A stretch of DNA of 32,000 nucleotides. Source: Vulcanisaeta distributa DSM 14429. GTDB taxonomy: Archaea; Thermoproteota; Thermoprotei; Thermoproteales; Thermocladiaceae. Of this stretch, positions 6,384-26,508 are shown piece by piece; the first letter of the stretch is position 1; the number at the start of each line of letters is the position of its first letter. The notes under the pieces are model-generated. The model had not been told where the DNA came from. It saw nothing but the letters and a program-made list of their open reading frames with translations, and did no database searches. The stretch covers positions 270,001 to 302,000 of the forward strand of contig NC_014537.1 of NCBI RefSeq assembly GCF_000148385.1, read 5' to 3'. Both the position numbers and the translations under genes were made by a program.

Positions 6384-6737
6384 TCACTTCATTAGCATCC
6401 TGGCGGGGCGTAACTCCCTCCTGAATGGATCAAGGACTAGCCCGAATATCTCGAGCGTGACTGTACCGAGTAGGTTCTCATCCTCTGTCTCACCGAGTAC
6501 AACCGGCGTGTGTCTCTCACCGTAACCCCTCAGCTCAATCACGGCTTCCGAGACCCACCGCCTAATCACCGTACCATCGGCAAGGACGAACTCCATCTCC
6601 TGCATGGGCTTAAGTCCAAGGTACTCCCAAACATCCCTCCTTAAAACGGTATACACCGCGCCCGAGTCGACAAGTAGCTTAACCGGTACGGACTTATCCC
6701 CATGCTTAACCACGGCATCAACATATACCAAGCCCAT
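6384..6737 (-). CDS. retropepsin-like (clan AA) aspartic protease, single-domain
   Basis: KLLVDSGAVYTVL carries the D-S-G-A catalytic motif. Size (117 aa) and the C-terminal LLGTVTLEIFGLVLDP match small prokaryotic retropepsin-like proteins. It is a paralog of 16506-16853. Confidence 0.7.
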   Translation of the reverse strand: MGLVYVDAVVKHGDKSVPVKLLVDSGAVYTVLRRDVWEYLGLKPMQEMEFVLADGTVIRRWVSEAVIELRGYGERHTPVVLGETEDENLLGTVTLEIFGLVLDPFRRELRPARMLMK

Positions 6738-7864: not shown

Positions 7865-7963
7865 TGAACAGCATTATTTAAGTTATTACGTGTTGCGCCA
7901 TGGTGAGGTAAATAGTATAAAAATACCAATGCTTAAAAGGGATGTAGTTACTAACACGGTGTC

Positions 7964-9055: not shown

Positions 9056-9057
9056 GG

Positions 9058-9801: not shown

Positions 9802-9826
9802 TACCGCAGGACGAGGCCTTGTCACG

Positions 9827-10627
9827 ATGGAATTACTAATTGGACATAGCCCGGACCCGGACGACGCATTCATGTTCTACGCACTGAAGAAAGGCCTGGT
9901 CAAGGCGCCTTTCACGGTCAGGGAATTCCTAATTGATATTGAGACGCTGAATAAATTGGCGATTCACGGTAGGATCGACGTCACGGCAGTGAGCACGCAT
10001 GCCATGGCATACATAGGGGGTAAATACTACATACTTAGGGTTGGCGCATCCATGGGGCTTAAATACGGCCCGGTTGTGGTGGGTAATACCGCAAAGCCCG
10101 AGTTGGTTGCGGTGCCTGGCACTTACACCACGGCAACACTACTTGTTAGGCTTGCAATGCCTAATGTAAAGACCGTGGAGATACCCTTCGATAAGATCAT
10201 GGATGCAGTAAGGGCCGGCGTGGTTGATGCCGGTGTGTTAATACATGAGGGGCAAATAACGTATGAGAGGTATGGGCTTAGGAAGATCATAGACCTAGGT
10301 GAGTGGTGGTATGAAGAGACGAAGTTACCAACGCCATTAGGCTTAGACGTCGTTAAGGCGTCTCTGGGCATTGATATGGCTAAGGCGGTTAAGGAGGCGT
10401 TGCTGGAGTCAATTAAGTACGCAATGAGCCATAGGGAGGAGGCCCTGGCATACGCCATGGAATTCTCGAGGGGCCTAAACATGGGCGATACTGATAGGTT
10501 CGTTAGGATGTATGTAAATGATTACACGATGGACATGGGAGTTGATGGTGAGAAATCAATCAAGGTACTACTTGAGATGGGTCATGAAAGGGGTTTATTA
10601 CCCGAGCCTCAATTACTATTTATCTAA
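9827..10627 (+). CDS. mqnD: 1,4-dihydroxy-6-naphthoate synthase (MqnD)
   Basis: The N-terminus LLIGHSPDPDDAFMFYAL matches the conserved MqnD HSPCPNDTF-type start. 266 aa. Confidence 0.7.
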   Translation: MELLIGHSPDPDDAFMFYALKKGLVKAPFTVREFLIDIETLNKLAIHGRIDVTAVSTHAMAYIGGKYYILRVGASMGLKYGPVVVGNTAKPELVAVPGTYTTATLLVRLAMPNVKTVEIPFDKIMDAVRAGVVDAGVLIHEGQITYERYGLRKIIDLGEWWYEETKLPTPLGLDVVKASLGIDMAKAVKEALLESIKYAMSHREEALAYAMEFSRGLNMGDTDRFVRMYVNDYTMDMGVDGEKSIKVLLEMGHERGLLPEPQLLFI

Positions 10628-14284: not shown

Positions 14285-15676
14285 ATGATGTCGAGTAAGA
14301 CACCATTTGAACCACTTGATCGGTCGAAGCCAACACCAGGACATCTAAAGCTCCTATTCATATCCGGCGCAGGCTTCTTCGCAGATGCCTATGACCTATT
14401 CGCAATATCCATAGCCCTCGTCTTCCTGAAGCAGGTCTGGTCATTAACCACTTCAGAAATAAGCCTGATATCATCGGCCGCATTGTTCGGAGCAGTTATA
14501 GGGCCCTTCATATTTGGCAGAATAGGCGACATATTCGGTAGGAAGTACATATACGGCGTGGAGGCCGCCCTATTAACCGCCGGCGCCATAGCCTCAGCCC
14601 TCTCAATAAACCCAACAACGCTTTGGATAACGAGGTTCATACTTGGCCTTGGAGTCGGTGGTGATTACCCAATAAGTGCCACGCTAATGAGTGAGTACGC
14701 ACCAGCCAGGAGTAGGGGTTTGTTTGTGGCTGGCGTCTTCTCAATGCAGGGGTGGGGCATAGTCACGGCCGCCCTACTCGGCCTAGGACTACTGAATGCC
14801 AAGGTCAATCCAGACCTCGCCTGGAGGATAATACTTGGGTTCGGCGCTGTTATGCCCGCGCTAGTCATTTACTTTAGGCGTAGGGTTCATGAGACGCCCA
14901 GGTTTGAGTACTTCGTTAGGGGCAATGTCGAGGGTGCCAAGAGGGCAATAAGGGATGTGCTCAGGCAGGATGTGGAAATAAACGGTGTGAGAAACCATGA
15001 TAATGGCTTCCGCAGCAACTTCATAAGGTACCTACCAGTGGTTCTGGGCACCGCGATACCCTGGTTTGCACTCGACGTGTTTTTCTACGGCGTGAACATA
15101 TTTGGGCCCTTCGTGACATCAGCGATGGGCCTAGCCAAGAGCCCGTTGGCGGGTATATATGTTCAGTTATATGTTGTTTTGGCATTCCTAGTGCCTGGCT
15201 ATTACGTGGCGGCATTACTAGTGGATAAAATGGGTAGGAAGGCCATGCAGATAATGGGCTTCTCAATAGTAGCCGCTACGTATTTAGTCGCAGCGCTATT
15301 GCTTAGGAATGGCATAGTAAACCCAGTAATCATATTGGCGCTTTACGGCTTAGCCCAGTTCTTCACTAACGTTGGACCCAACGTGACGACGTTCATACTG
15401 CCAACGGAGGTATTCCCAACAAGGTTTAGGACGACGGGCCACGGGATAGCCGCCGGTAGCGGTAAATTGGGCGCAACAATAGCGGCATTACTAATACCGC
15501 TGTACTTCCCAATAACAAGCAGTGCATTAAGCACGGTGGCCAAGTACGTGGTTATGTCGAACCTACTGCTGGTCCTAGTCATCATGGCAATAATAGGCAT
15601 AGTATTCACCGCGCTCTTCATCAATGAACCTAAGGGCAAGTCTCTTGAACTATCCTCAGGGGAATTAACAACGTGA
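14285..15676 (+). CDS. MFS transporter, PHS (Pho84-like) inorganic phosphate:H+ symporter family
   Basis: GAGFFADAYDLFAISIAL near the N-terminus is characteristic of PHS phosphate transporters. About 12 hydrophobic segments and a GRIGDIFGRK MFS loop motif. Confidence 0.7.
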   Translation: MMSSKTPFEPLDRSKPTPGHLKLLFISGAGFFADAYDLFAISIALVFLKQVWSLTTSEISLISSAALFGAVIGPFIFGRIGDIFGRKYIYGVEAALLTAGAIASALSINPTTLWITRFILGLGVGGDYPISATLMSEYAPARSRGLFVAGVFSMQGWGIVTAALLGLGLLNAKVNPDLAWRIILGFGAVMPALVIYFRRRVHETPRFEYFVRGNVEGAKRAIRDVLRQDVEINGVRNHDNGFRSNFIRYLPVVLGTAIPWFALDVFFYGVNIFGPFVTSAMGLAKSPLAGIYVQLYVVLAFLVPGYYVAALLVDKMGRKAMQIMGFSIVAATYLVAALLLRNGIVNPVIILALYGLAQFFTNVGPNVTTFILPTEVFPTRFRTTGHGIAAGSGKLGATIAALLIPLYFPITSSALSTVAKYVVMSNLLLVLVIMAIIGIVFTALFINEPKGKSLELSSGELTT

Positions 15677-15709
15677 TGCATTAAAACCAAGCCCCAATGT
15701 AGGTGTTGT

Positions 15710-16129
15710 GTGAGCGTTTCTAGGGAATTTGTTAAGAATCTTATTAGGGACATTGAGTATGCTGTAAGGGAGGTTAATAGGATTGCGAGTAAGTCGTATG
15801 ATGAATTGAGTGATGAGGATAAGATGGCCATTAGGTATGAGTTGATAGTCATCGCTGAGGCATTAATGGCCCTGGTAATGCACATAGTGCGTAGGGGCCT
15901 GAACGAAAGACCCAAGACACCCATAAACGCGTTAATGATGGCCAGGGACAGGGGCTTACTGACTATGAATGAGTATGAGGACTTGACGAAGTTGGTAAGA
16001 CTTAGGAATCTCCTCGTCCATAGGTATTGGGTGATTGACGATTACTTAATATATCGAAGCATTAAGTCGGACTTTAAAAGCCTAGCGAGCTTTATAGATA
16101 GGCTAAGAAGCCGCTATGGCATTCGATGA
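15710..16129 (+). CDS. hepT: HEPN-domain (DUF86) protein, HepT-like putative RNase toxin
   Basis: The Rx4H HEPN motif sits in LVRLRNLLVHRYW. 139 aa with a GTG start. Overlaps the MNT gene by 14 nt. Confidence 0.75.
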   Translation: MSVSREFVKNLIRDIEYAVREVNRIASKSYDELSDEDKMAIRYELIVIAEALMALVMHIVRRGLNERPKTPINALMMARDRGLLTMNEYEDLTKLVRLRNLLVHRYWVIDDYLIYRSIKSDFKSLASFIDRLRSRYGIR

Positions 16130-16517
16130 AGGGTATACTTACCATTCAATAAGTCGTGAGGAGCGGGAATCATTGATTTCGAGGATTAGGGACGTACTTA
16201 GGGAGTATGGTGTTTCCCTAGGTATCGTATTCGGTAGCTTCGTAGACCTCGATGAGTTTAGGGACATAGATATCGCGGTTTATGGGAAGGATATCGACCT
16301 CAATAAGGTATTAAGCCTTGGGACCAGGCTTGAGGAGGTCCTTGGTATTCCGGTGGATGTGGTTTCATTAATGGATGTCGATCCCGAGTTCAGGCTTTCA
16401 ATACTGGAGCGTGGCATCGTAATTCTCGAGGATGTTGATGGTTTATACGAGGCATTAATAAGTGAGACCCTCGATGAACTTTACCTGGTGAGACACGGGG
16501 AAGACCTAGTACAGTAG
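16116..16517 (+). CDS. mntA: minimal nucleotidyltransferase (MNT), MntA-like antitoxin
   Basis: GIVFGSFVDLDEFRDIDIAVYG matches the GSx(9-13)DxD pol-beta-type NTase motif. 133 aa. Confidence 0.8.
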   Translation: MAFDEGYTYHSISREERESLISRIRDVLREYGVSLGIVFGSFVDLDEFRDIDIAVYGKDIDLNKVLSLGTRLEEVLGIPVDVVSLMDVDPEFRLSILERGIVILEDVDGLYEALISETLDELYLVRHGEDLVQ

Positions 16518-16853
16518 GTATGGTGCCTCCTTGAGCGTGCCTGTCATTGGGTCTATCATTAGGCCTAGGATCTCCAGTGTCGTTATACCTATGAGGACTT
16601 TATCAATTATGTCACTAATAACGACCCTAACCGTGGCCTCCCTACCCATTAACCTAACCCTAACCTCACTAAACTCAACATTAACAGGCCCGCCGACGGT
16701 CATGACCACGCCCCTATCCGTAACCCTCAGCCCAAGCTCCACAGCCAATGCCCTGGGTATGACAGTTAAGGTGGCGCCGCTGTCCACCAACGCCTTCACC
16801 CTGACCTCCCTATCCCCACTTATTAATTCGGCATCAACCCAAACATAGCCCAT
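16506..16853 (-). CDS. retropepsin-like (clan AA) aspartic protease, single-domain
   Basis: KALVDSGATLTVIP (DSGA) and C-terminal VLIGITTLEILGLMIDP. The paralog at 6384-6737 begins MGLVYVD, so ATG 16853 (MGYVWVD) is preferred over the track's TTG at 16874. A TATA-like box lies about 30 nt upstream. Confidence 0.7.
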   Translation of the reverse strand: MGYVWVDAELISGDREVRVKALVDSGATLTVIPRALAVELGLRVTDRGVVMTVGGPVNVEFSEVRVRLMGREATVRVVISDIIDKVLIGITTLEILGLMIDPMTGTLKEAPYLLY

Positions 16854-16880
16854 ACACTTCACCAATTCTATCAACGCGGC

Positions 16881-16890
16881 GCTTATAAAG
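16881..16890 (-). promoter_or_regulatory. TATA-like box (minus-strand CTTTATAAGC) for the retropepsin-like gene
   Basis: Lies in the 50-nt gap after the coiled-coil gene stop and is centred about 33 nt upstream of ATG 16853. Confidence 0.3.
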
Positions 16891-16903
16891 CTTCTACAAG
16901 TAA

Positions 16904-17764
16904 CTACGTCGATGACACCTCAAGTGGTGTTAATTCCTCCCTCCACGTAAGTACCCAAATACCGTTTTTCCTAGCCTCCTCAATGGCCTCAGGGACATAC
17001 CTCATGCAGTAAAGGACCTTAACAACCCTAGGCCTCAGGTACTGCGGGTACCTACTCCTCAACTCATTAATTACACCCATCAACTCCCCAACCTTACCGA
17101 CCCTAAGGTCCAGGGTTGAATCACCAACCACGCAAAGGTCATCGATGACACCATAAATATTCAACTCAAGTACCTCCCTACCGCCCTCGGTAATTACCAA
17201 CCTACCCAGCCTAACATTGATGCCAAGCCTCTCCCTCAGCCTCCAGGAAACGACGTCTAAGGCCTCATCCTCAATACTGTAAGTTAGCTTCTGCAGCGTC
17301 CTATTCATTTGATTTAGTGTCCTTTTAATATCCTGGACATCCCTAGTGAGCTCATCAAGCTTAGCCGAGTGACTCTGCAGCACTTTTCCATGCTCATCAA
17401 GCTTACTACCGTGCTCCTGCAGTAGCCTTGTATGCTCATTCAAAATCCTACCATGCTCCTCCAATAACCTACCATGTTCCTCCAGTAACCTTCTATTCTC
17501 CTCAAGGGCTTTACTATGCTCCTGCAATAACCTAGTGTGTTCCTCGAGGATCCTCGCGTGCTCCTGTAATACCTCTCCATGCCTCTTCAACTCCTCCTCA
17601 ATACTCACGATCCTACTGAGCATGGCATTAAAGTCCTGCCTAAGCGCCTTAAGCTCGTTAAGTATTGAGTCGAGACCCAGGGCACCGGCTATGGCAAGTC
17701 TAAACTCCTCATCAGTCCTTATCAACTCCAGCACAATCTTCCTGACCTCATCCCTACTAACCAC
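16904..17764 (-). CDS. coiled-coil protein with 12 His-containing heptads and an alpha/beta C-terminal domain (function unknown)
   Basis: A 286-aa ORF with a GTG start. Residues 59-142 form heptads L-[QE]-E-H-x-[RK]-[LI]. The C-terminal ~120 aa (EVLELNIYGVIDDLCVVGDSTLDLRVGKV...) recalls restriction-endonuclease-like domains of paralogous crenarchaeal families, but a canonical D..(D/E)xK triad is not evident. Confidence 0.6.
   Translation of the reverse strand: MVSRDEVRKIVLELIRTDEEFRLAIAGALGLDSILNELKALRQDFNAMLSRIVSIEEELKRHGEVLQEHARILEEHTRLLQEHSKALEENRRLLEEHGRLLEEHGRILNEHTRLLQEHGSKLDEHGKVLQSHSAKLDELTRDVQDIKRTLNQMNRTLQKLTYSIEDEALDVVSWRLRERLGINVRLGRLVITEGGREVLELNIYGVIDDLCVVGDSTLDLRVGKVGELMGVINELRSRYPQYLRPRVVKVLYCMRYVPEAIEEARKNGIWVLTWREELTPLEVSST
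17339..17590 (-). repeat. about 12 tandem 21-nt (heptad-encoding) repeats inside the coiled-coil gene
   Basis: The plus strand shows recurring ...atgctcctc/ctgcag/taacct... units. The translation is LKRHGEV LQEHARI LEEHTRL LQEHSKA LEENRRL LEEHGRL LEEHGRI LNEHTRL LQEHGSK LDEHGKV LQSHSAK LDELTRD. Confidence 0.8.
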
Positions 17765-17840
17765 ACCAATCTACACTACAAGAACACCGCCAGAATTAAT
17801 AACCCTTCCCATAACGTGGCCACATCACCCTCAGAGGGCT

Positions 17841-17903
17841 CCGTGCTTTGGGTGTGCAGAGTCGCCGTAGTTCTATATACACGGCGACTCTTCAAGTCCA
17901 AGT
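17841..17903 (+). repeat. hairpin repeat unit, copy 1 (left arm of the 51-nt inverted repeat)
   Basis: ccgtgctttgggtgtgc + AGAGTCGCCGT-agttctatatac-ACGGCGACTCT + tcaagtccaagt. It has an 11-bp perfect stem. Positions 17841-17891 are the exact reverse complement of 19288-19338. Confidence 0.9.
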
Positions 17904-18336
17904 TATGACTAAGATCTAGCATTAATGCATCCTAAGGAGTTAGTGGTCGTCGCCAGGGTGTTGTGGAGTCCCTTTTTGATAAGGGTTAGGTTGCGATTGA
18001 GGACTACGGCAAGATAAGGCTTTTCAGGGGTTTGTGAAGAGATTCGGGTATTTTGGGTTACGCCATTGCGGTATATCGATGTTACTGAGGATATTGATGG
18101 TAAGGTTTAATGCCCGTGATAAACATGACTAAGGATGGAGGATTAAAGGGAGTTAATTAAGACGTATGATGACTCCGGCATAATATTAAGAAAACTAACA
18201 TCAGATTAATGAAACCCAACGAGATATTAATGAGAAACAAAATATCCAGAGATCTAAAACTTAATCATGAGGAAGTACCACGCCTAGTGATTACCTGCTT
18301 GCTAAGTAACAATCATGCAGGTATTGAGGTAATTTT

Positions 18337-18398
18337 CGCGCATTGGATGTGAAGAGTCGCCGTAATTATATAATTACGGCGACTCTCCAGGTCCAAAA
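18337..18398 (+). repeat. hairpin repeat unit, copy 2 (internal, same orientation as copy 1)
   Basis: cgcgcattggatgtga (12/16 identical to the copy 1 arm) + the perfect 34-nt palindrome AGAGTCGCCGTAATTAT/ATAATTACGGCGACTCT (18353-18386) + ccaggtccaaaa (8/12 identical to copy 1). Confidence 0.85.
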
Positions 18399-18661
18399 TA
18401 TGGCAGTAAAGAATAAGCCTAGGAGCCTAGCTTCACATTAACTTTATCATTATAGTGAGTTGATTCATTACTGTAAATTAGTTCATGAGCGTTACCATAC
18501 CATTATCATTAGTAATGACCTTAACAAACGTAGGCAGGCTTACATATATGCCGTAAGGTGCATCAACGCGTATTAAATCCCCTAGGTAAGTAATTGAAAT
18601 TGCCATGAACTTATTGATCGGTCAGGGCGTAACGTCAGTAATGAATGGATCAGACAGGTAA

Positions 18662-18868
18662 GTGAGGGTTATGGTAATATTCAGGAAGGTTTTAATTCCT
18701 GGTTTCCCGAGACTTTCTGTGGATGAGTACTTCCTTGAATTGATTAAGAGACGTAAGATGGGTATGAGGAAGCTGGGTTACATGAGGAAGAAAGCCGTGC
18801 TTACCAGGTTGGTGTCGGTGGAGGAGTATGGCGGTGAGGGTGAGGGTAAGGCTGAGGAGCGGAAGTAG
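18662..18868 (+). CDS. hypothetical small basic protein (doubtful)
   Basis: A 68-aa GTG-initiated ORF with no motif. Its 3' end is a GGTGAG-type hexamer low-complexity tract that also encodes the N-terminus of the next gene in another frame. Confidence 0.2.
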   Translation: MRVMVIFRKVLIPGFPRLSVDEYFLELIKRRKMGMRKLGYMRKKAVLTRLVSVEEYGGEGEGKAEERK

Positions 18869-19240
18869 GGATGTCGTAACCTCGGCCGTTATTAATACGG
18901 GTTTCGAAACAGACACACCCAACATTGCAATACCCACACCACTGGCTAGGATGCTCGGTCTATGGCCACTCAGCGGTGGTGAGTTAATAAGCCTTGAGAC
19001 AGGTGGTGGAGAGACGGAGGCTTATTTAGTAAATAATGCCTTATCCCTAAGCCTGGAACTTGAGGATAGGGTCGTTGGGCCAATAATGGTTAATGCCATC
19101 ATAAACCCAATATAAGTGAAGTGCTGATCAGCGATTACGTGACGACACAGCTAGGCATTGTAATACTAAATGCCAAGGAGGGCCTATGGAGATTAATGGA
19201 CGAGAATAAAGTAAGGAAAAGTGTGGAACCCACGTATTGA
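18828..19240 (+). pseudogene. retropepsin-like aspartic protease homolog, frameshifted and with the catalytic Asp replaced (INTGF)
   Basis: The frame-0 ORF 18828-19115 (MAVRVRVRLRSGSRDVVTSAVINTGFETD...AIINPI*) continues in the -1 frame as (N)ISEVLISDYVTTQLGIVILNAKEGLWRL...* to 19240. This matches the C-terminal VLIGxxxLExLGL region of the two intact paralogs. The DTG/DSG motif reads NTG. Confidence 0.6.
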
Positions 19241-19275
19241 CTTTAACGACATAATTCTTGTTTAGGATGATTCCT

Positions 19276-19338
19276 ATTTGGATATGTAGAGTCGCCGTGT
19301 ATATAGAACTACGGCGACTCTGCACACCCAAAGCACGG
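19276..19338 (-). repeat. hairpin repeat unit, copy 3 (right arm of the 51-nt inverted repeat)
   Basis: Positions 19288-19338 are agagtcgccgtgtatatagaactacggcgactctgcacacccaaagcacgg, the exact reverse complement of 17841-17891. The inner arm atttggatatgt is 8/12 identical to the other copies when reverse-complemented. Confidence 0.9.
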
Positions 19339-19430
19339 GGATCCCTAATTGTAGTGTTTGTATCATTTATATTTAATTAGTTTATTTGGCATAGTTCTTG
19401 GCATTATTTCTATTTTTTATTAGAGTAAAG

Positions 19431-19440
19431 CTTATAAACC
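19431..19440 (+). promoter_or_regulatory. TATA-like box (CTTATAAACC) upstream of ATG 19461
   Basis: Centred about 26 nt upstream of ATG 19461, which is consistent with a leaderless transcript. Confidence 0.35.
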
Positions 19441-19460
19441 CCTGGGTTATCTTGGCTTTG

Positions 19461-20078
19461 ATGTATGTGGTTTTTGGAGTAACGAGTGGGATGTCTTCAG
19501 TGGTCTTTGAGGGCAGGTATAAGGGTCCTAATGATGTTAGGGATGTTCATGTGAGTGATGTTCCTAGGATTAACCATGTGCTCCATAGCTTCGTCATTAC
19601 TAATGACGTTAATGATTTCGTCATATGGACCTTTGACATACCTGGTTATGAGACACACATTTACTCAATGATTAAGGAGAGGGCTACATTACTCCTATGC
19701 CCAAGGATTGATAACTCCACGTACCTACTGCCTGATGCTTCATTGGTTAATGAATTAAATTCAATGCTGTACAAAGATGCTAGGTCAGCTACGTACTTCG
19801 TTAGGCCCACGGATAGGTCTTTCGTATCCAAGGTCCTTAGGGACACGGTTAGCGCCGCCAGGGCTTTGATAATGGAGAAGGTCAGTAATCTACTTAGGTC
19901 TAGGGGCCTCGCCACGATTAGGCTGATGGATGAGCTTGGTGGCATTAGTGATGACATGATTACGGCGGCTAAATTATGGGCCAGTAAGGGGTTCGCTAAT
20001 GAGGTTGATGGTGTGTACTCGATGGTCGATTACGTCAGGTCATCCCTGGAACTGAAGAGGAGTAGGTCGAGGAGGTAA
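19461..20078 (+). CDS. hypothetical protein (orphan, no recognisable motif)
   Basis: The track ORF starts at TTG 19398, but its first 21 codons are AT-rich promoter-like sequence containing a TATA-like box. ATG 19461 is preferred. Codon usage resembles neighbouring plus-strand genes. The C-terminal tail is basic (KRSRSRR). Confidence 0.55.
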   Translation: MYVVFGVTSGMSSVVFEGRYKGPNDVRDVHVSDVPRINHVLHSFVITNDVNDFVIWTFDIPGYETHIYSMIKERATLLLCPRIDNSTYLLPDASLVNELNSMLYKDARSATYFVRPTDRSFVSKVLRDTVSAARALIMEKVSNLLRSRGLATIRLMDELGGISDDMITAAKLWASKGFANEVDGVYSMVDYVRSSLELKRSRSRR

Positions 20079-20095
20079 TTTTTACCTAAAAATGA

Positions 20096-20818
20096 TTAGG
20101 GCTTCACAGTGTAATAAACCCTCTTCTTATCCTTACCCCTACTCTCGGACTTCAGGAAGACAATCTCACCAATCTCCCTGGTATTAGCCACGTGGGGCCC
20201 ACCGTCAGCCTGAATATCAATGCCCTCAATCTCCACAATCCTCCACTCATCACCAGGCGGTGGCTCCCTCTCGGCAAGCTTAACAACGCCTGGTATCTTC
20301 ATAGCCTCCTCCCTCCTCAGGAAGTAAATCTTCACGGGAATGCCCCTCCTCACGATTTCGTTGGCCTCCGCTATCAAGTCCTGGAACGCCTTCCTAAGCG
20401 CATCGCCACTTAGGGTTAGGTTGTAGTCATCCCTAGCGTACTCAGGCGTTATGTCGCCGCCAGTCACCAATGCATTATACTTCTTATAGGCCAGTGCGGC
20501 TATTATGTGCGTTGCCGTGTGAAGCCTCATTAACCTATACCTCCTCTCCCAATCAATTACCCCATGCAACGTATCGCCGACCCTAAACCTTGGTTCCCTA
20601 TCGAGTATGTGCACCGCATCCTCACCCTCCTTAATCACCTCCTTGACCACGTACTCCTCACCCTGCCAAATCAGCCTGCCCGTGTCATTGGCAACACCAC
20701 CACTCCTTGGGTGAAAGAGCGTCTGGTCAAGCCAAACCCTATTACCATCAATCCTAGTCACGGTGGCATCAAACTCCCTCCTGTACGAGTCCCACCAGTA
20801 GAGGAATTTTGTTGGCAT
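20096..20818 (-). CDS. alaX: AlaX-type alanyl-tRNA editing protein (AlaRS/ThrRS second additional domain)
   Basis: HTATHII (HxxxH zinc motif), QADGGPHVANTREIGEI (the CGGTHV-type motif with Asp in place of Cys), and N-terminal LYWWDSYRREFDATV as in AlaX-M. By homology the start is MPTKF (20818) rather than the track's 20872. Confidence 0.7.
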   Translation of the reverse strand: MPTKFLYWWDSYRREFDATVTRIDGNRVWLDQTLFHPRSGGVANDTGRLIWQGEEYVVKEVIKEGEDAVHILDREPRFRVGDTLHGVIDWERRYRLMRLHTATHIIAALAYKKYNALVTGGDITPEYARDDYNLTLSGDALRKAFQDLIAEANEIVRRGIPVKIYFLRREEAMKIPGVVKLAEREPPPGDEWRIVEIEGIDIQADGGPHVANTREIGEIVFLKSESRGKDKKRVYYTVKP

Positions 20819-20855
20819 GGGTTTCAGGGAGAAGCCTGAAATTAATGTATTGCGC

Positions 20856-22100
20856 CTATGCCGGTATTCCAAAGAATCTCCTTATTGCGTAGAGCATGAC
20901 ATCGTGCGTCCTAACCAGGTCATCCACCGTAACATACTCATTATATGCATGGGCCAGCGCCAACTCACCAGGTCCATAAACAACGGTGGGTATACCCCTA
21001 GCCCTAAGGTACCTACCATCGGTTGCGCCAGTGACTATTATCGGCCTTGGCGTTGCGCCAAGGACCCTCTCAATGCCCTCGTGAATGATCCTGACAATGA
21101 CCTCACCAGGGCTTGTGTAGTTTGGCTCGCTTGTGTCCAGGACCTCCACATCGGCGATACCGCTCAACCCACTCCTTAAGTGATTAATTACCTGGCTTGG
21201 TGAAACCCCTGGCGGGACCCTCATGTCAAGTTCAAGCTCTGCGTAGTCTGGGACCATGTTTATCTTCGAACCACCCCTAACAACGCCTGGGTTAAAGGAC
21301 ACAGTACCAACAACCCTCTCAAAATCACTGAGCGTCAGATTAAGCCCCGAGGCCCTAGCAGCCTCTAGGTAGACCTCAGCCGAGTTCCTAATGGCCTCCG
21401 TCAACTCACTGGGTAACTTAATGCCCTTGTTAAACTCATTAATCAACTCCTCAGCCCTAGCTATGGCTGCGGCCAGCTTCATTATCGCATTCTCGCCGAG
21501 GATCGGTAAACTACCGTGGGCAGGCCTACCCCTGGTAACCAACTTAACCTGGCAAAGCCCCTTCTCACCAATGTAATACCTGGAACTACCGGATGGCTCA
21601 GCAACTATCGCAGCATCACCAACCAGCACGCCATCCCTAACCAAGGCCTCAACACCAGGGTGGCCGCCCGTCTCCTCATCCGCCGTTGCCGAGAATATTA
21701 ATGTACCTGAGCCCTGCCTCTCAATAAGTGGCGCTAATTCTGTGAATACCATCATTATCACCGCTAAGCCACCCTTCATATCCGTGGCACCCCTACCATA
21801 GATCCTACCCTCAACGATCTTCCCAGAGAACGGTGGGTAGACCCACCTGGAATCATCGCCGGGAGGAACTACGTCCATGTGGCCGTTAAGTATGAGCACG
21901 GGCTTACCCCTACCAACCCTGGCAATCACGTTTGGCTTATCCTTAGCATACTCCCTAAACTCACTTTTGAAGCCACGCTCACCTAGCCAATCCCTAATAA
22001 ATCCCGCAATATTAACGGTATAGCCAGGGGGATTAACACTGGGTATTTGAATAAGGTGTGAAGTCAGTTCAATTAGCCCTGTCTTTAGATTCTGTGACAT
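20856..22100 (-). CDS. M20-family metallo-deacylase (ArgE/DapE/LysK-like)
   Basis: GHMDVVP, GRGATDMKGG and ADEETGG motifs. 414 aa. Confidence 0.8.
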   Translation of the reverse strand: MSQNLKTGLIELTSHLIQIPSVNPPGYTVNIAGFIRDWLGERGFKSEFREYAKDKPNVIARVGRGKPVLILNGHMDVVPPGDDSRWVYPPFSGKIVEGRIYGRGATDMKGGLAVIMMVFTELAPLIERQGSGTLIFSATADEETGGHPGVEALVRDGVLVGDAAIVAEPSGSSRYYIGEKGLCQVKLVTRGRPAHGSLPILGENAIMKLAAAIARAEELINEFNKGIKLPSELTEAIRNSAEVYLEAARASGLNLTLSDFERVVGTVSFNPGVVRGGSKINMVPDYAELELDMRVPPGVSPSQVINHLRSGLSGIADVEVLDTSEPNYTSPGEVIVRIIHEGIERVLGATPRPIIVTGATDGRYLRARGIPTVVYGPGELALAHAYNEYVTVDDLVRTHDVMLYAIRRFFGIPA

Positions 22101-22120
22101 ACATTCTGATAATCTAAAAA

Positions 22121-22136
22121 TACTTTATAAATATTT
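22121..22136 (-). promoter_or_regulatory. TATA-like element for the M20 deacylase gene
   Basis: tactttataaatattt is centred about 28 nt upstream of the minus-strand ATG at 22100, within a 117-nt very AT-rich divergent intergenic region. Confidence 0.3.
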
Positions 22137-22182
22137 CATCTGTCATTTTTCTACTGATTTCGAACTTAAACATGAAGAAAAA

Positions 22183-22197
22183 TTTAAAAATACTAAT
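22183..22197 (+). promoter_or_regulatory. TATA-like element for the DUF3311/symporter operon
   Basis: tttaaaaatactaat is centred about 28 nt upstream of ATG 22218. It shares the 10-mer TAAAAATACT with 22115-22124. Confidence 0.3.
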
Positions 22198-22217
22198 AAA
22201 AGTAAAAATATTTAAAT

Positions 22218-22442
22218 ATGTACTCTAGACCTAAACTAAGCAAAGAGAATTTAGTCAAAATAATATTATTAATAATAGTGCCATGGTTATTCATAGTATT
22301 TCTAGCGCCCCTCTATAATAGACCTTATCCTCAGATTGGTGGATGGCCATTCTTATGGTGGTACTTATTTGCTTGGGTTTTTATTCAACCTATCATAACA
22401 TACATAGTGTATAGGTTAATTGATAAGGGTGGTAAGTCATGA
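22218..22442 (+). CDS. small membrane protein, DUF3311-like symporter-associated subunit
   Basis: 74 aa with two hydrophobic segments and a GGWPFLWWYLFAW motif. Overlaps the following sodium:solute symporter gene by 4 nt (ATGA), which is the usual arrangement for this small-protein family. Confidence 0.55.
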   Translation: MYSRPKLSKENLVKIILLIIVPWLFIVFLAPLYNRPYPQIGGWPFLWWYLFAWVFIQPIITYIVYRLIDKGGKS

Positions 22443-23905
22443 TGTTTACAGCGATTGATTATACCATATTTTTTGTGCTGGTTGGCTTAACCATAATTGC
22501 GGGGTTCCTTGGTGCTAAATGGAGGGCTCCTGATTTCTCAAAGATTTCGGAATGGAGCATCGGCGGTATGAAGTTTGGCACAGTAATTGTTTGGTTCTTA
22601 ATGGGTGCCGATATATACACTGCGTATTCTCTAGTGGCGATACCAGGCAGTGCATACGCGCTGGGTGGTTTTATATTGTATGCCGTGGTTTACGGCTCAA
22701 TATCATACCCATTCTTATATATCGTTGCTACGAAGTTCTACAGAATAGCTAAGCGGAGGGGTTATATCACGGCTGGAGACTACGTAAGGGATAGGTTTGA
22801 TAGTAGGATTTTGTCGTTATTAATATCATTAACGGGCATAATAGCCATGTTACCCTACATAGCGCTGCAGATAGTTGGTATTAGGTACGTCCTCGATGCC
22901 ATGGGATTCCCAGTAATCCCAAGCTTTATAATAGCATATATAATAGTCGCTGCGTTCGTGGCAATAAGCGGACTTAGAGGGCCAGCTCTGAGTTCATTAA
23001 TTAAAGATGTATTGCTTTGGGCGGTTATTTTAACAATAGTTATAGCGCTAGGCATAAGGTTCACGGGGTTTGGGCCCATATTTAGCGAGATAGGACCCAG
23101 TCACTATTTAATACCAAGTAAATTAATGCTTGGGTACATAACGTTAGCATTTGCTAGTGGGATATCATGGCTATTATTTCCAAACCTACTAGTTGGGCTA
23201 CTCGGCTCTAAAAGTGAGGAAATAATCAGGAAAAACTCCATCTTCCTACCACTGTACCAGGTATGGCTAATACTACTGGCAATTATGGGCTTAGTAGCCT
23301 TAGCTAAGAACCTGGTACCCCATGGCATATCAAGTCTCGCATTCCCATCAGTAATCAGCGCTTATTTCCCATCGTACTTCGTCGCATTAGCATTTGCGGG
23401 CATAGTAATTGGCAGTATGGTACCAGCTGGGCTACAAAGTCTTGGCGCTGCTAATTTAATAGCCAGGAATATTTATGTAGACTTCATAAATAAAAGAGCT
23501 ACAGAAAAACAACAGGTACTTTGGGGTAGGGTTTCCGTTTTCATAATGATAATCGCATCATTAATATTTGCAATAACACCCGCAGCCAGCGGATTAATAT
23601 TCTACTTATTAACATTCTCCTACGCATGGTTATTACAGACACTACCTGCAATAATATTGTCGATGTATTGGTACGATCTAGATAAGTACAGTGTGGCGGC
23701 TGGTTGGGCCGTTGGTACCGTATTCGTGACCTATGGTTTAGCCACCGTGAAATTCTCATCATCATTACTGCCCTGGTTCTATAACATCTACGTAGGATTC
23801 CTAGGACTTGTACTGAACTTAGTGGTAATGTTAGTAGTGTATGCAGTGGTTAAGGCCCTTAAGGTAAAAACAACAAGTAAATTAACACCGCAAGAGTTAA
23901 TGTGA
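22439..23905 (+). CDS. sodium:solute symporter family (SSS) transporter
   Basis: 488 aa with about 13 hydrophobic segments. The N-terminal EWSIGGMKFGTVIVWFLMGADIYTAYSLVAIPG pattern is typical of SSS proteins. Confidence 0.75.
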   Translation: MMFTAIDYTIFFVLVGLTIIAGFLGAKWRAPDFSKISEWSIGGMKFGTVIVWFLMGADIYTAYSLVAIPGSAYALGGFILYAVVYGSISYPFLYIVATKFYRIAKRRGYITAGDYVRDRFDSRILSLLISLTGIIAMLPYIALQIVGIRYVLDAMGFPVIPSFIIAYIIVAAFVAISGLRGPALSSLIKDVLLWAVILTIVIALGIRFTGFGPIFSEIGPSHYLIPSKLMLGYITLAFASGISWLLFPNLLVGLLGSKSEEIIRKNSIFLPLYQVWLILLAIMGLVALAKNLVPHGISSLAFPSVISAYFPSYFVALAFAGIVIGSMVPAGLQSLGAANLIARNIYVDFINKRATEKQQVLWGRVSVFIMIIASLIFAITPAASGLIFYLLTFSYAWLLQTLPAIILSMYWYDLDKYSVAAGWAVGTVFVTYGLATVKFSSSLLPWFYNIYVGFLGLVLNLVVMLVVYAVVKALKVKTTSKLTPQELM

Positions 23906-23934
23906 GGTCGTTCATTAACAATACCTCTTAAAAA

Positions 23935-24972
23935 TTAAGTAATTTTCATTATCTCCAATAACGCATTAAGGAGCGAGTCATCAACTTCCCGTGTCTTAAT
24001 ACTAACCCTAAAGTATCCCTCAGTCAGTGGTGGTATGTTTGATAAGTCCCGTATCAGGAATCCGCGTTTGAGGAGTTCCTCGTTAAGCCATGGCTGGTGC
24101 CTTATTACGAAGTAGTGAGTTGTTGATTCGTAATAACTAATGCCAAGACTCCTTAATGAATTTAATACTCTACTTCTCTCCTCCTCAACGTACTTAATCG
24201 TTAACTCCCTGAATCCACGGGCATGCTTCATGTACCTGGATACCGCGTACTCGGCTATTGAGTTTACGGGCCACGTTGGCACCAGGTCCTCGATGTTAGC
24301 CTTCGTATACACAGCACCAACCCTAAGCCCTGGTATTGCCAGGAACTTCGTGTATGACTTAACAACAAACACATTGTCATACCTTAGCGAATCCCTAATT
24401 AATGATTCATTCGATTTTACGAAGTCCATGAATGATTCATCAACGACCAAGACACCACCGCGCCTATATAGTTCCTCAGCCAGCCCAATTAGTGATTCAC
24501 GCTTAATTAAGTAACCCATTGGTGAGTTTGGGTTGGAAAGAATAACGGCCGTATTTGAAACCACCCCATCAATTAATGAATTCACCAGGTCCCCATATCC
24601 CCAATACTCAATTAATCTAATATCGGCATTTATCAGCCTGCCTAGGCGTAGGTAATCACTGTAATTCGGTATGGGTATTAATATGCGGTGAGGCCTTAGG
24701 TACATGAGTAGTAATTGAAGGGCCTCGGTGGCTCCATTAAATACGTACGTAAACTCAGGCCTAACGCCCTCAAACCCCGCCAGCGAATCCCTTAGTTCAT
24801 CACCAAGCTCCGTCGGGTAATGCGAGTAATGACCATTAACTACACCCTCCTCAATTAGCTTAATTAGCTCCTTTGGAGTGCCCAGTGGGTTCATGTTCGA
24901 GCTCATGTCTATTAACCCGTACCTCCATCCATACCCACCGTGACCCCGGGCACCACCAATTATGTTACCCAT
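23935..24972 (-). CDS. cobD: class I/II PLP-dependent enzyme, CobD (threonine-phosphate decarboxylase) / HisC-like
   Basis: N-terminal ARGHGG...IDMSSNMNPLGTP (the HGG + xxSxNxNPLG pattern of CobD) and SYTKFLAIPGLRVG (PLP-lysine motif). 345 aa. Confidence 0.6.
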   Translation of the reverse strand: MGNIIGGARGHGGYGWRYGLIDMSSNMNPLGTPKELIKLIEEGVVNGHYSHYPTELGDELRDSLAGFEGVRPEFTYVFNGATEALQLLLMYLRPHRILIPIPNYSDYLRLGRLINADIRLIEYWGYGDLVNSLIDGVVSNTAVILSNPNSPMGYLIKRESLIGLAEELYRRGGVLVVDESFMDFVKSNESLIRDSLRYDNVFVVKSYTKFLAIPGLRVGAVYTKANIEDLVPTWPVNSIAEYAVSRYMKHARGFRELTIKYVEEERSRVLNSLRSLGISYYESTTHYFVIRHQPWLNEELLKRGFLIRDLSNIPPLTEGYFRVSIKTREVDDSLLNALLEIMKIT

Positions 24973-25036
24973 AATTCAGTTTAGATTCTGCGAGATAAGT
25001 TAAATAAATCCCCGCTATTATTGAATCCGATAATTA

Positions 25037-25477
25037 ATGATGCATGGACATGGCCACTTCGGACCGCCACCACAGTGGTTCATAAAAAGGAGGGGCCTAA
25101 AGTACTTAATACTTTACCTACTCAGTAGTAGGGGTCCAATGACTGGTGCGCAGATTATCGATGAGATCGAGAGGTTGTCAATGGGTTTCTGGAGACCAAG
25201 CCCTGGCTCTGTGTATCCAGCCCTTGAGGAGCTTGAGTCTGATGGCTTAATTAGGGTGGCTAGGGTTGAGGGCACTAAGAAGTATTACGAAATCACCGAC
25301 AGTGGTAAGGCCTACATAGGCCTACCGAGCATTGATAAAACCACGGCTGCCGTTAATGACTTCGTGTCTCTGGCTAGGTACATTATTGATAATTGGGACA
25401 CACTTAGTGAGGCCGATAGGAATAGGGTTAGGGATGTTCTCAGGGACTTAATTAAGACGGCAAACATTCAATGTTAA
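25037..25477 (+). CDS. PadR-family transcriptional regulator
   Basis: The winged-helix signature MTGAQIIDEIERLSMGFWRPSPGSVYPALEELESDGLI is present. The N-terminus is His/Gly-rich (MMHGHGHFG). Confidence 0.8.
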   Translation: MMHGHGHFGPPPQWFIKRRGLKYLILYLLSSRGPMTGAQIIDEIERLSMGFWRPSPGSVYPALEELESDGLIRVARVEGTKKYYEITDSGKAYIGLPSIDKTTAAVNDFVSLARYIIDNWDTLSEADRNRVRDVLRDLIKTANIQC

Positions 25478-26508
25478 TCCATACTATAGAGCACTACGTG
25501 AGGCATTTTCAGCTCGTCAATAAACCACTTATTCCTAACCTCCATTATTAACTGCCTACTATCAATGTAATTACCCAATAACTTAGTCACTGCATTTCCA
25601 AGGCCCTCACTAAGGCAGTAATCGGCATTCTCAAGGAGTATTAATGATGGCTTCCTCGCCACGATTAATTGGGTTGTCAATGCAAGTATTGTCTTTATGT
25701 GGCATGGTAATTCATCACCAATATGAACAAGCCCCCTCTTATCCACGTAGGAGAGGACTAACTCGCCGCCGTACCAACCAGCCCTGAAATTCCTAAAGCC
25801 AAGCTCTCCAAGGACCTTCCTAAGAAACCTAACGTCAGAATCCCTTCTCGGGTCGGTGAATAGTTGGGATAATATCTCAATTATGTGCTCACCATGTTCA
25901 CCAATAAAGTCCGGCTGTGAAATTTCGGTGTTCTTAACGCGACCCCTGAAGTCTATGTATGGCCCTATCTTGTAAATACCGACTGAGAGCAGGTACTCCC
26001 TAATCGCCTTAATTACCGATAGTGCCGTCTCATAATCCTCAGAGGCACTACCCACCAATTGTAATGCCTGCTCCTTGGGCGCCAACCCATCTGGGTTAAG
26101 CAGTATCGATGCATCAACCACATCAACATCCAGTGGATACTTAACCCTGCTAACGCCGCTCCTAAACTCAGCAACCATGACCTCCCTCTCACCAACCTTA
26201 ACCACACTTACGTAACCATCATCAAGACCAACACTAATCGTTACAGAATCACCGGAATAACCAACCTCCTCAAGCCTCTTCTTAACCCTATCATCCAGCG
26301 ATATTGTAACATCAATCCTCGCATCACCAACCCTGGGTAAATCCTCGAGAAATAACCTATCCCTAATACCCCTGAAAAACCTCCACAATAACTCAATGAT
26401 CATTGACTTACCCGAGCCAGGCGACCCGGTAATTACTGTTAAGGGTCCAAGCTCAATGCTGGTATTTATTCCATAAAACCCCTTAATGCCTAGTCTTGTT
26501 ATTAACAC
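25474..26508 (-). CDS. ABC/SMC-like P-loop ATPase (AAA_21/AAA_15-like), orphan
   Basis: Walker A is VITGSPGSGKS at the N-terminus. FIGEHGEHIIEIL resembles the GENLxxxL motif of this family. The Walker-B-like region is PSLILLENADYCL. 344 aa. Confidence 0.65.
   Translation of the reverse strand: MLITRLGIKGFYGINTSIELGPLTVITGSPGSGKSMIIELLWRFFRGIRDRLFLEDLPRVGDARIDVTISLDDRVKKRLEEVGYSGDSVTISVGLDDGYVSVVKVGEREVMVAEFRSGVSRVKYPLDVDVVDASILLNPDGLAPKEQALQLVGSASEDYETALSVIKAIREYLLSVGIYKIGPYIDFRGRVKNTEISQPDFIGEHGEHIIEILSQLFTDPRRDSDVRFLRKVLGELGFRNFRAGWYGGELVLSYVDKRGLVHIGDELPCHIKTILALTTQLIVARKPSLILLENADYCLSEGLGNAVTKLLGNYIDSRQLIMEVRNKWFIDELKMPHVVLYSMD

Follow-up and report, generated by a model that had tools for sequence, protein, structure and literature searches.

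The segment at positions 17841–19338 of the 32-kb stretch of Vulcanisaeta distributa DNA analysed here (the window) appears inverted relative to the layout of a sister strain and of another species, and it is bounded by inverted copies of a palindromic unit of approximately 68 bp. We consider it probable that the segment belongs to a shufflon-like, inversion-prone region and is not a transposon. Recombination between copies of the unit would flip, swap or delete the DNA lying between them, and general recombination is favoured over a dedicated recombinase as the activity responsible.

A palindromic unit at the ends and in the interior of the segment

The segment is located between two divergently transcribed genes, each with its own promoter outside it. 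The features discussed below are as follows:

16904–17764, minus strand: coiled-coil gene (its orthologues match Pfam DUF8196), a conserved gene that anchors the variable locus on the left
17841–17908, no strand: unit A, whose outer half (17841–17857) faces the DUF8196 gene; fold z −3.9
17858–17891: core hairpin of unit A, with loop AGTTCTATATAC; the left exact arm is 17841–17891
17909–18335, no strand: non-coding stretch between units A and B, termed seg
18336–18404, no strand: unit B, with its core at 18353–18386; fold z −7.3
18662–18868, plus strand: 68-aa gene, the first in a two-gene cassette
18828–19240, plus strand: 139-aa gene, disrupted near 19110 by a frameshift of 1 nt
19275–19338: unit A', an inverted copy of unit A, with its core at 19288–19321 and its outer half facing the orphan gene
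19288–19338: right exact arm, within unit A'
19407–19443, plus strand: orphan promoter block, with the TATA-like element CTTATAAA at 19431–19438, approximately 25 nt before the ATG and outside the segment
19461–20078, plus strand: orphan gene (205 aa, P0001), the right conserved anchor

A script check showed that positions 17841–17891 are the exact reverse complement of 19288–19338 over all 51 nt, and the window contains no other exact inverted repeat of 20 nt or longer. The abrupt ends of the identity described in the initial annotation were also verified: the bases just beyond the outside edges are T and G, and those at the inside edges T and T. A looser repeat search extended the arm pair to 80 nt at 85% complementarity. 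The arms are part of the two inverted copies among the three units of the window, whose organization is TTGG-N6-AGAGTCGCCGT-N12-ACGGCGACTCT-N6-CCAA with an AT-rich N12. A search for the pattern AGAGTCGCCGT-N12-ACGGCGACTCT matched at exactly three positions of the window, 17858, 18353 and 19288, and in none of 100 shuffles, and single-strand folding of each unit yielded z values of −3.9 to −7.3 against shuffled controls. The hairpins with an 11-bp stem and a 12-nt AT-rich loop that had been noted at both arms were recovered in this way, as was the third copy reported in the interior (18353–18386). In this third copy, unit B, the loop AATTATATAATT is symmetric as well, so that the core forms a perfect palindrome of 34 bp.

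The left arm is situated 76 nt from the GTG start (17764) of the coiled-coil gene, and the right arm 59 nt from a TTG at 19398 and 122 nt from an ATG at 19461, in agreement with the distances of 76 nt and 59–122 nt given previously. The ATG at 19461 is taken as the true start of the orphan gene, since P0001 is 205 aa long and the promoter is conserved (0.96 mean identity over the promoter block). The DUF8196 gene has a TATA-like element near 17797, outside the segment. A role of the AT-rich loop as a core promoter was rejected, since each flanking gene has a TATA box of its own approximately 25 nt before its start codon. The orphan protein contains no recognisable catalytic motif and belongs to no recognisable family; its AF2 model combines a weak Cas2/VapD-like fold (E 0.04–0.3) with a three-helix bundle.

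Within the segment, the ORF listing confirmed the ORF-free stretch of some 790 nt, with no ORF of 60 aa or more from about 17870 to 18662. Parts of seg are kept at 77–79% in a different species (L028), and an archaeal gene of ATPase_2 type survives in seg only as faint traces (tblastn E 0.07–0.15). The 68-aa ORF, previously regarded as doubtful, is conserved in two other genomes (at 87% identity in the sister strain L057, and in L061) and is probably a real gene. The adjacent reading frame had been described as a frameshifted protease gene. The frameshift near 19110 stands, the gene being intact in L057 (4535–4954) and L061 (4743–5162); the protease identity is doubtful, since the 139-aa protein, with its INTG motif, is only weakly retropepsin-like, shows weak blastp matches to aspartic proteases (E 0.009–0.13) and has no Pfam match. 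Searches of Pfam, NCBIfam, PADLOC and PDB sequences assigned no family to the orphan, 139-aa, 68-aa or 126-aa proteins.

Inversion and gene conversion relative to a sister strain

L057 represents a sister strain that is 96–97% identical to the window and is a separate strain rather than a re-sequencing of the same one, since the differences are mostly substitutions. Positions 17841–19338 of the window map in reverse onto L057 5941–4443 (96.6% identity over 1501 nt), and both flanks of the block map forward, at 97.5% and 96.2%. As a consequence of this arrangement, the operon of the 68-aa and 139-aa genes points toward the orphan gene in the window and toward the DUF8196 gene in L057. The half-sites of the units follow the order a/b ... 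d/c ... e/a' in the window and a/e' ... c'/d' ... b'/a' in L057; the outer halves are thus fixed and the inner halves exchanged, as fits a crossover inside the units. Because L028 shares the layout of L057 beside the orphan gene, the orientation found in the window is the derived state.

The arms themselves bear the marks of exchange. Both arms of the window carry the loop sequence ...TTCTAT... and the flank gtgtgc, and both arms of L057 carry ...TTATAT... and gtgtgt. These strain-specific substitutions, common to both arms, indicate gene conversion, which would explain how perfect identity is kept beside diverged sequence. The conversion tracts differ in position, the exact repeat reaching outward in the window arms and inward in those of L057. 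The proposal in the initial annotation of an invertible segment whose arms are kept identical by ongoing recombination or gene conversion is therefore borne out at the evolutionary level, by the L057 inversion, the shared arm substitutions and the other inverted blocks described below. A 2.2-kb deletion in the window ends approximately 32 nt outside unit A; it was rejected as a unit-mediated event because its endpoint lies beyond the unit.

Recurrent rearrangements bounded by the unit

At least three further unit-bounded inversions and one cassette replacement separate the other genomes. A block of approximately 6 kb bounded by units is inverted in L060 and L084 relative to L065, the HepT-MNT cassette is inverted between L058 and L085 (93% identity), and the seg region of L061 lies opposite to that of L057 and L028. 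In the replacement, the same units enclose a DUF973 cassette in one of the two genomes and an ATPase_2 cassette in its counterpart. The units again resemble one another within a genome: all four units of L085 have one common loop, and both units of L060 carry the same compensated change from G-C to A-T. Among the internal HSP endpoints, 70 of 265 (26%) fall within 30 nt of a unit, compared with 3% expected, and the flanks are collinear over 6–9 kb in the same comparisons. Among the assemblies compared, several are draft genomes or contigs from metagenomes, although the junctions are distinctive and four independent comparisons agree. The inversions are known from comparisons between genomes, not within one population, the source strain being represented by a single assembly, and the inversion may be a rare historical event repeated a few times. 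A truncation of the orphan-proximal units of L058, L085 and L084 by breakage at their centre was considered and discarded, as the alignment shows decayed left arms instead.

Distribution and conservation of the unit

In nine genomes or contigs, the unit is confined to one hypervariable locus, located between the DUF8196 gene and the orphan gene, with two to five copies per locus and a locus length of 2–7 kb. The orphan gene is preceded, at a distance of 120–180 nt, by a unit, intact or decayed, in all Vulcanisaeta loci read. Beside the paralogue of the orphan gene, at a paralogous locus, the core is found as a variant that differs by three compensated substitutions. In the genome of V. distributa JCM 11217 the exact core is present at this locus only, and no unit was detected outside the locus in approximately 150 kb of flanking Vulcanisaeta DNA. 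A core scan of genome, metagenome and viral contigs, among whose matches the source genome did not appear, returned only L028 and L065 as real relatives; nearly all matches were chance occurrences in GC-rich bacteria. The viral contigs contained no copy of the unit, and BLAST of the segment against phage and plasmid collections gave no match. Caldivirga possesses the orphan gene and the same neighbour genes without the units. The restriction of the repeat to a single locus, which had been put forward as a sign of a local operator or terminator, thus holds, yet the orientation of the segment differs between strains; overall, this pair of observations is ambiguous.

The core arms show 0.88–0.91 mean identity, compared with 0.54–0.66 for the adjacent spacer and intergenic DNA, and the core together with the TTGG/CCAA boxes is more conserved than the neighbouring intergenic DNA. 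This conservation suggests a sequence-specific protein partner. The unit family appears not to have been described previously.

Three further assignments were rejected. An H/ACA-like or other guide RNA was dismissed on the grounds that pairing in the outermost helix reaches only about 50% and that the half-site types recombine like DNA. Rfam 15 gave no match at the gathering threshold, and in E-value mode only generic miRNA hairpins at 26–30 bits against a gathering threshold of 100; the window contains no tRNAs. A replication origin was discarded because the 32 kb contain no Orc1/Cdc6 or Cdt1-like gene and the locus content is hypervariable, unlike that of an origin. The dif site of the Xer system occurs once and has a 6-bp spacer between arms of 11 bp (PMC2958812); here three copies lie within 1.5 kb and the 11-bp arms enclose a centre of 12 nt, so the unit does not conform to it.

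Mechanism and alternative explanations

We infer that the general recombination, repair or template-switching machinery of the cell acts on palindromes able to extrude hairpins; conversion tracts with variable ends would result, and occasional crossovers would yield inversions. A domain search of the window and of the cassettes of all related loci detected no recombinase or transposase domain, extending the earlier statement that the segment holds no transposase or integrase gene, and the only recombinase seen was an IS607-type resolvase in L085, outside the locus.

That the 1.5-kb segment could be a non-autonomous transposon, as initially suggested, of a MITE-like kind inserted by a transposase acting in trans, would account for its perfect terminal inverted repeats and for the lack of an internal transposase. 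However, the flanks (...GAGGGCT at the left edge, GGATCCC... at the right) contain no direct repeat and hence, as already reported, no target-site duplication; divergence from the sister strain is alike in the interior (96.6% identity) and in the flanks (96.2–97.5%); and between species the interior is wholly different while the end units are retained. Copies of the unit do exist in relatives, at the same locus, but neither dispersed copies nor empty sites were found: the outer arm halves are orthologous in all related genomes, the exact copies of JCM 11217 occur only here, and the approximately 150 kb of flanking Vulcanisaeta DNA contain none outside the locus. This interpretation is therefore hardly tenable. 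The GC-rich 11-bp stem and AT-rich 12-nt loop also resemble the stem-loops of HUH endonucleases, and the initial annotation had offered IS200/IS605-style ends as another reading. The unit, as an IS200/IS605 end or a REP/RAYT-like or rolling-circle-origin-like element, would then be nicked in its AT-rich loop by an HUH/Y1 enzyme and mobilised as single-stranded DNA. The units are indeed extragenic palindromes like REPs, but they lack a GTAG or CGTC tag (PMC3733652) and number two to five per locus rather than tens to hundreds. Moreover, the block is closed by identical inverted copies, unlike IS200/IS605 elements, whose left and right ends are dissimilar and do not form inverted repeats; the window and 11 related loci encode no Y1/HUH gene; and the viral contigs, phages and plasmids searched carry no copies of the unit. 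The orphan protein, considered as an HUH Rep-like nuclease, was rejected for want of the HUH motif. No positive sign of IS200/IS605-style ends was found, and mobilisation by an HUH/Y1 enzyme is very improbable.

Two other proposals deserve more weight, although each is rather unlikely in our judgement. In one of them, the units would be mainly regulatory palindromes bound by a protein, for instance operators for the DUF8196, AbrB-like or orphan genes, with the rearrangements as side effects and the inverted layout mirroring the divergent promoters. Every unit is intergenic; in most genomes the DUF8196 gene and the orphan gene each have one unit upstream; and, next to the orphan gene of L084, L062 and L081, an inverted pair of units flanks a small gene whose MazE/AbrB-like signal is weak (E 0.022); the preservation of dyad symmetry by compensated changes is likewise as expected for sites bound by dimers. 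Nevertheless, the DUF8196-proximal unit lies 2.2 kb away in L057 and L028, where the promoter region is conserved up to window position 17812, and the left arm of the orphan-proximal unit is decayed in L058, L085 and L084, where the orphan promoter block is still 96% conserved. Units also occur just past gene 3' ends (the 139-aa gene, MNT and PaREP1), they lie 110–156 nt from start codons and so far from the TATA box at about −25, and Caldivirga maintains the same genes without them. In the other proposal, which we hold to be about as doubtful, the units would be sites of a dedicated recombinase encoded elsewhere or of the orphan protein, and the locus would act as a cassette switch of the shufflon or integron type in an archaeon, with frequent flipping inside populations. 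Consistent with such a switch are the nested inversions among multiple units, the cassette replaced between the same units, a recombinase-like geometry of inverted arms of approximately 11–14 bp around a symmetric AT-rich centre, the constraint on the core and the TTGG/CCAA boxes, and the fully symmetric unit B, which would permit both inversion and excision. Among the neighbours of the units only the orphan gene is constant, and the three compensated substitutions at the paralogous locus are as expected from co-evolution with a paralogue-specific protein. Against this, none of 11 loci has a recombinase in cis; the variable position of the conversion tracts, and their extension into the flanks, is the pattern more usual for homologous recombination; the orphan protein lacks a recognisable catalytic motif or family, its Cas2/VapD match being weak; its gene occurs in Caldivirga, where units are absent; and the orphan-proximal units are decayed in three lineages. 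A more specific version, which we consider decidedly speculative, is a new cassette-shuffling system whose hairpin or cruciform sites of approximately 68 bp would be recognised through the sequence at the foot of the hairpin (TTGG-N6-AGAGT) and through the structure of its centre, and cut and rejoined by a site- or structure-specific enzyme, with the orphan protein or an unlinked recombinase as candidates.

As regards the general recombination that we favour, an identity of 51–55 nt is short for homologous recombination, which speaks against it. The constrained core, the fixed geometry and the symmetric TATATA centre with inverted arms of approximately 14 bp also suit a dedicated recombinase site.

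Comparison with known systems and significance

Bacteria provide well-documented examples of programmed or quasi-programmed DNA inversion and cassette shuffling, whereas archaea have barely been documented in this respect. In the shufflon of plasmid R64, the Rci recombinase acts on asymmetric sfx repeats of 19–31 bp (PMC11852207). The Vulcanisaeta locus shares with shufflons the short repeats in both orientations and the blocks found in different nested orientations between genomes, but no gene for an Rci-like or other recombinase adjoins it, its sites are palindromes of approximately 68 bp, and its blocks contain whole unrelated genes (TA pairs, an ATPase, an ABC transporter) instead of alternative 3' ends of one gene. 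As in invertons such as fimS, hin and those of Bacteroides (PMC5903667, PMC11602134), an intergenic segment bounded by inverted repeats occurs in both orientations, here between strains or species; unlike in invertons, the flanking promoters lie outside the segment, no invertase is nearby, and the repeats are internally palindromic, present in at least three copies and found in an archaeal host. An archaeal parallel is provided by Int-pTN3 of Thermococcales, a tyrosine recombinase that can mimic homologous recombination on segments down to 104 bp (PMC5495485): both cases concern a hyperthermophilic archaeon with recurrent inversions between short identical sequences among close relatives. The Int-pTN3 inversions, however, are large, chromosome-wide and based on arbitrary repeats, whereas those described here involve one locus of 2–7 kb and one palindromic unit, and no pTN3-like integrase is present at the Vulcanisaeta loci examined.

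Like REPs and BIMEs, the units are short extragenic palindromes, single or in inverted pairs, that are tied to rearrangements. REPs, though, measure 20–40 bp, carry GTAG/CGTC tags, are scattered at copy numbers from tens to hundreds and are associated with RAYT genes (PMC3733652), in contrast to locus-restricted units of approximately 68 bp, two to five per locus, with no RAYT seen. The attC sites of integrons, including archaeal integrons (PMC9668308), are likewise hairpin-forming imperfect palindromes of approximately 60–70 nt located between accessory or TA cassettes whose content differs between relatives. Here, by contrast, there is no IntI, attI or Pc and the cassettes lie in both orientations; the units lack the R''/L''/L'/R' layout and GTTRRRY, and their cores are nearly identical, whereas attC sites are cassette-specific. 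Finally, long palindromes are local hotspots of breakage, conversion and rearrangement without a dedicated recombinase, in that their hairpins or cruciforms break and are repaired from ectopic copies (PMC8053094, concerning yeast nucleases). Such palindromes are usually unstable and lost, but the Vulcanisaeta unit has been retained across the genus with a constrained sequence.

This locus offers a compact and tractable case, with a 68-bp site, at least four natural inversions, a cassette replacement and gene conversion between arms. It also advises caution in annotation, as perfect non-coding inverted repeats are not necessarily transposon ends. If a new cassette-shuffling system were at work, it would constitute an archaeal counterpart of shufflons and integrons, flipping and exchanging TA and accessory cassettes at high frequency; a dedicated enzyme would imply a new pair of site and recombinase and, possibly, a function for the conserved orphan family. 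If general repair acts on the units, as we favour, a maintained palindrome would make one intergenic region a private rearrangement hotspot in a hyperthermophile.

Anatomy and setting of the palindromic repeat

The exact 51-nt inverted repeat described in the initial annotation was verified at every position (17841–17891 is the reverse complement of 19288–19338, with all 51 nt matching), as was the abrupt end of identity at both edges of the 51-mer, and no other exact inverted repeat in the window reaches 20 nt. The third hairpin copy proposed there was also recovered: the pattern AGAGTCGCCGT-N12-ACGGCGACTCT occurs three times in the window, at 17858, 18353 and 19288, with no match in 100 shuffles, and all three copies folded far better than shuffled controls. 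The locus comprises the following features:

15710–16129, HepT
16116–16517, MNT nucleotidyltransferase, forming a toxin-antitoxin pair with HepT
16904–17764, minus strand, DUF8196 coiled-coil gene
17841–17908, unit A
17909–18335, non-coding stretch between units A and B, with faint ATPase_2 remnants
18336–18404, unit B
18662–18868, gene for a conserved 68-aa protein
18828–19240, 139-aa gene, frameshifted in the window
19275–19338, unit A'
19461–20078, plus strand, orphan 205-aa gene (P0001)

A profile of all copies defined the unit as an imperfect palindrome of approximately 68 bp, (CCGTGC)TTTGG-N6-AGAGTCGCCGT-N12-ACGGCGACTCT-N6-CCAAA(GCACGG). Across 30 unit copies, the 11-bp core helix was 94.8% paired, with compensated double changes in 4 of its 11 pairs; the TTGG/CCAA boxes were near-invariant, the 6-nt spacers variable, and the outermost 6 nt paired only about half the time. 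An AT-rich sequence occupies the unit centre; that of unit B is itself symmetric, which makes unit B a perfect 34-bp palindrome. Mean identity between orthologous copies was higher in the arms (0.88–0.91) and the CCAAAGCACGG box (0.86) than in the spacer (0.54) or the next 45 nt (0.66).

The 32-kb window is ordinary chromosome, carrying futalosine-pathway genes, ribosomal protein L5, an MFS transporter, the HepT/MNT pair, a clan-AA aspartic protease, an AlaX-like protein and succinate dehydrogenase subunits. It contains no recombinase, transposase or Orc1/Cdc6 gene, in agreement with the earlier statement that transposase and integrase genes are lacking from the segment, and no tRNA or Rfam family was found in it. 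The futalosine-type menaquinone cluster (6764–10627) includes two radical-SAM CofH/MqnC-like and two VitK2_biosynth genes, and is adjoined by a second clan-AA aspartic protease paralogue (6384–6737), 40% identical to the one at 16506–16874. Residues 11–61 of the DUF8196 protein match the PADLOC candidate-defence model PDLC01085 'C3a181' (E 8e-14), the remainder giving generic coiled-coil matches alone (SMC, Rad50, JetC).

The distances from the arms to the flanking gene starts and the ORF-poor stretch of about 790 nt had been correctly reported, but the small ORF considered doubtful (18662–18868) encodes the conserved 68-aa protein. As for the supposed frameshifted protease, the 139-aa gene is intact in the sister strain (L057) and in the related locus L061 and frameshifted in the window, and its product is only weakly retropepsin-like. 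One base is lost from an A-run at approximately 19108–19111, giving ...AIINPI* in place of ...AIINPNISEVL...; the gene may truly be a pseudogene, or the finished genome may contain a homopolymer sequencing error here. A unit lies about 30 nt after the stop codon of this gene in all three genomes (window, L057 and L061).

The segment is inverted between strains

The sister strain (GCA_001316125.1) is 96–97% identical to the window, with mostly transitions as differences. Its sequence aligns forward to both flanks (15625–17812 and 19278–25893) and in reverse to 17841–19338 (96.6% over 1501 nt), so that the initial reading of an invertible segment is supported between strains. Interior and flanks have diverged to the same degree; hence, the interior was vertically inherited. 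Half-sites, labelled a to e (primes denoting inverted copies), read a|b, d|c and e|a' in the window and a|e', c'|d' and b'|a' in the sister strain, a pattern confirming a crossover within the units. V. distributa JCM 11217 (approximately 84% identical) shares the sister-strain arrangement beside the orphan gene; thus, the window state is derived. Both of these strains also keep a 2.2-kb block, encoding an M48 peptidase and three small ORFs between the DUF8196 gene and the first unit, that is missing from the window (17813–17840 versus 2202–4438 in L057), the deletion junction lying about 32 nt outside unit A.

Rearrangements recur among related loci. The whole interior of about 6 kb, carrying an ABC transporter, a CARDB protein, FtsX and ATPase_2, is inverted in L060 and L084 relative to L065. 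Between L058 and L085 (approximately 90% identical), a 1-kb HepT-MNT cassette, orthologous to the pair at 15710–16517, is inverted between two units, and a DUF973 cassette is replaced with ATPase_2 and an 88-aa gene. The non-coding stretch between units A and B is inverted in L061 relative to L057 and JCM 11217, the neighbouring 68/139-aa cassette keeping its orientation. Of 265 internal HSP endpoints, which are mutually non-independent, 70 lay 30 nt or less from a unit, the expected share being 3%, and the surrounding 6–9 kb are collinear in these same comparisons. By these alignments, the locus is a rearrangement hotspot with the units as its boundaries.

One metagenome contig (L085, 1–1520) carries an IS607-type element immediately left of the MFS transporter, encoding a serine resolvase with an HTH_17 domain, an MJ0013-like protein and a Cas12f1/TnpB-like protein; it lies outside the variable locus and is missing from the window. 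Separately, a contig from a JCM 14467-like strain (L059, 1–60; Logan DRR723723_157) ends at an exact unit edge (equivalent to L058 5237/5238), as would happen if assembly graphs broke at the unit, and is uninformative on orientation heterogeneity.

Distribution of the units and the orphan protein

Every unit found sits between the DUF8196 gene or the MFS transporter and the orphan gene. The exact core occurs genome-wide in JCM 11217 at this locus only, a metagenome search returned one true relative (L065), and none came from the viral, phage or plasmid collections. At a paralogous orphan locus in V. moutnovskia and JCM 16161 (L062 7341–7897, L081 4421–4989), two inverted units bracket a 126–129-aa gene, and the left unit marks the exact start of synteny between these genomes. 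These units have unchanged length, AGAGT/ACTCT ends and similar flanks; their core, AGAGTGGAGGT... / ...ACCTCCACTCT, bears three substitutions, all compensated, within a 34-nt AGAGTGGAGGTAAGA-N4-TCTTACCTCCACTCT.

Caldivirga (L086 1–1925, L087 170–2597) shares the neighbourhood (window 16506–17764 and 19461–20078), with a DUF8196-like coiled-coil protein, a 107-aa homologue of the 121–129-aa gene, an orphan homologue and a clan-AA aspartic protease. No units were found there despite the same genes; consequently, the units are a Vulcanisaeta innovation over an older gene module. The small 107–129-aa protein of this module, not in the window, gives a weak MazE/AbrB signal (E 0.022).

The orphan protein, 100% identical to a Vulcanisaeta distributa protein, is the sole constant neighbour of the units and has about 38 representative relatives, some in Caldivirga. 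It matched nothing in Pfam, NCBIfam or PADLOC and received no family assignment. Its AF2 model (pLDDT 77, good from residue 42 on) has a ferredoxin-like domain followed by a three-helix bundle; among PDB folds, the domain matches Cas2 and VapD best, though weakly (E 0.04–0.3). Assigning the protein any role would be speculation.

Arm homogenisation and mechanism of rearrangement

Of the three differences that separate the orthologous arms of the window from those of the sister strain, two (loop C/A and flank c/t) occur in both arms of each genome, and the exact repeat extends outward into the a-flank in the window and inward (ttcaagtccaa) in L057. One loop is common to all four units of L085, in alternating orientation, and both units of L060 carry a compensated G-C to A-T change. 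Arm identity is thus maintained by gene conversion, which explains perfect identity beside diverged DNA. Of the causes initially offered for that identity, gene conversion is upheld and recent transposition is not needed.

A MITE or TIR transposon, one of the initial readings, is contradicted by vertical divergence, by the finding of no empty site and by units that were not dispersed in the Vulcanisaeta DNA covered; no target-site duplication was found, as already observed. The IS200/IS605-style reading, together with REP-RAYT, is weakened by identical inverted ends, no Y1 gene seen in the window or in 11 related loci, low copy number and no GTAG/CGTC tag (PMC3733652). An integron would have IntI or attI, neither of which is present, and the cassettes lie in both orientations (PMC9668308); a dif site has the wrong geometry and copy number (PMC2958812), and an oriC is countered by hypervariable content and no initiator gene. 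That the units serve the flanking genes as an essential operator is likewise unlikely: L057 and JCM 11217 have the DUF8196-proximal unit 2.2 kb away, and in L058, L085 and L084 the unit nearest the orphan gene is decayed with the promoter block still 96% identical.

Recombination between units inverts and exchanges the intervening DNA. The variable conversion tracts, which extend into the flanks, and the lack of any nearby recombinase gene lead us tentatively to favour, within an overall reading that we consider probable, exchanges that would proceed via general recombination, repair or template switching at palindromes prone to form hairpins. Action of a dedicated site- or structure-specific enzyme on the units seems rather unlikely; a constrained core sequence, a compensated core specific to the paralogue and a recombinase-like geometry of inverted arms around a symmetric TATATA centre speak for it, and enzyme-driven inversions mimicking homologous recombination have archaeal precedent (PMC5495485). 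No description of this palindromic-unit locus was found in the literature searched; it is akin to known invertible or shuffling regions and to extragenic palindromes. The feature is real and unusual: in a crenarchaeon, a palindromic repeat specific to one locus underlies a shufflon-like cassette region prone to inversion.
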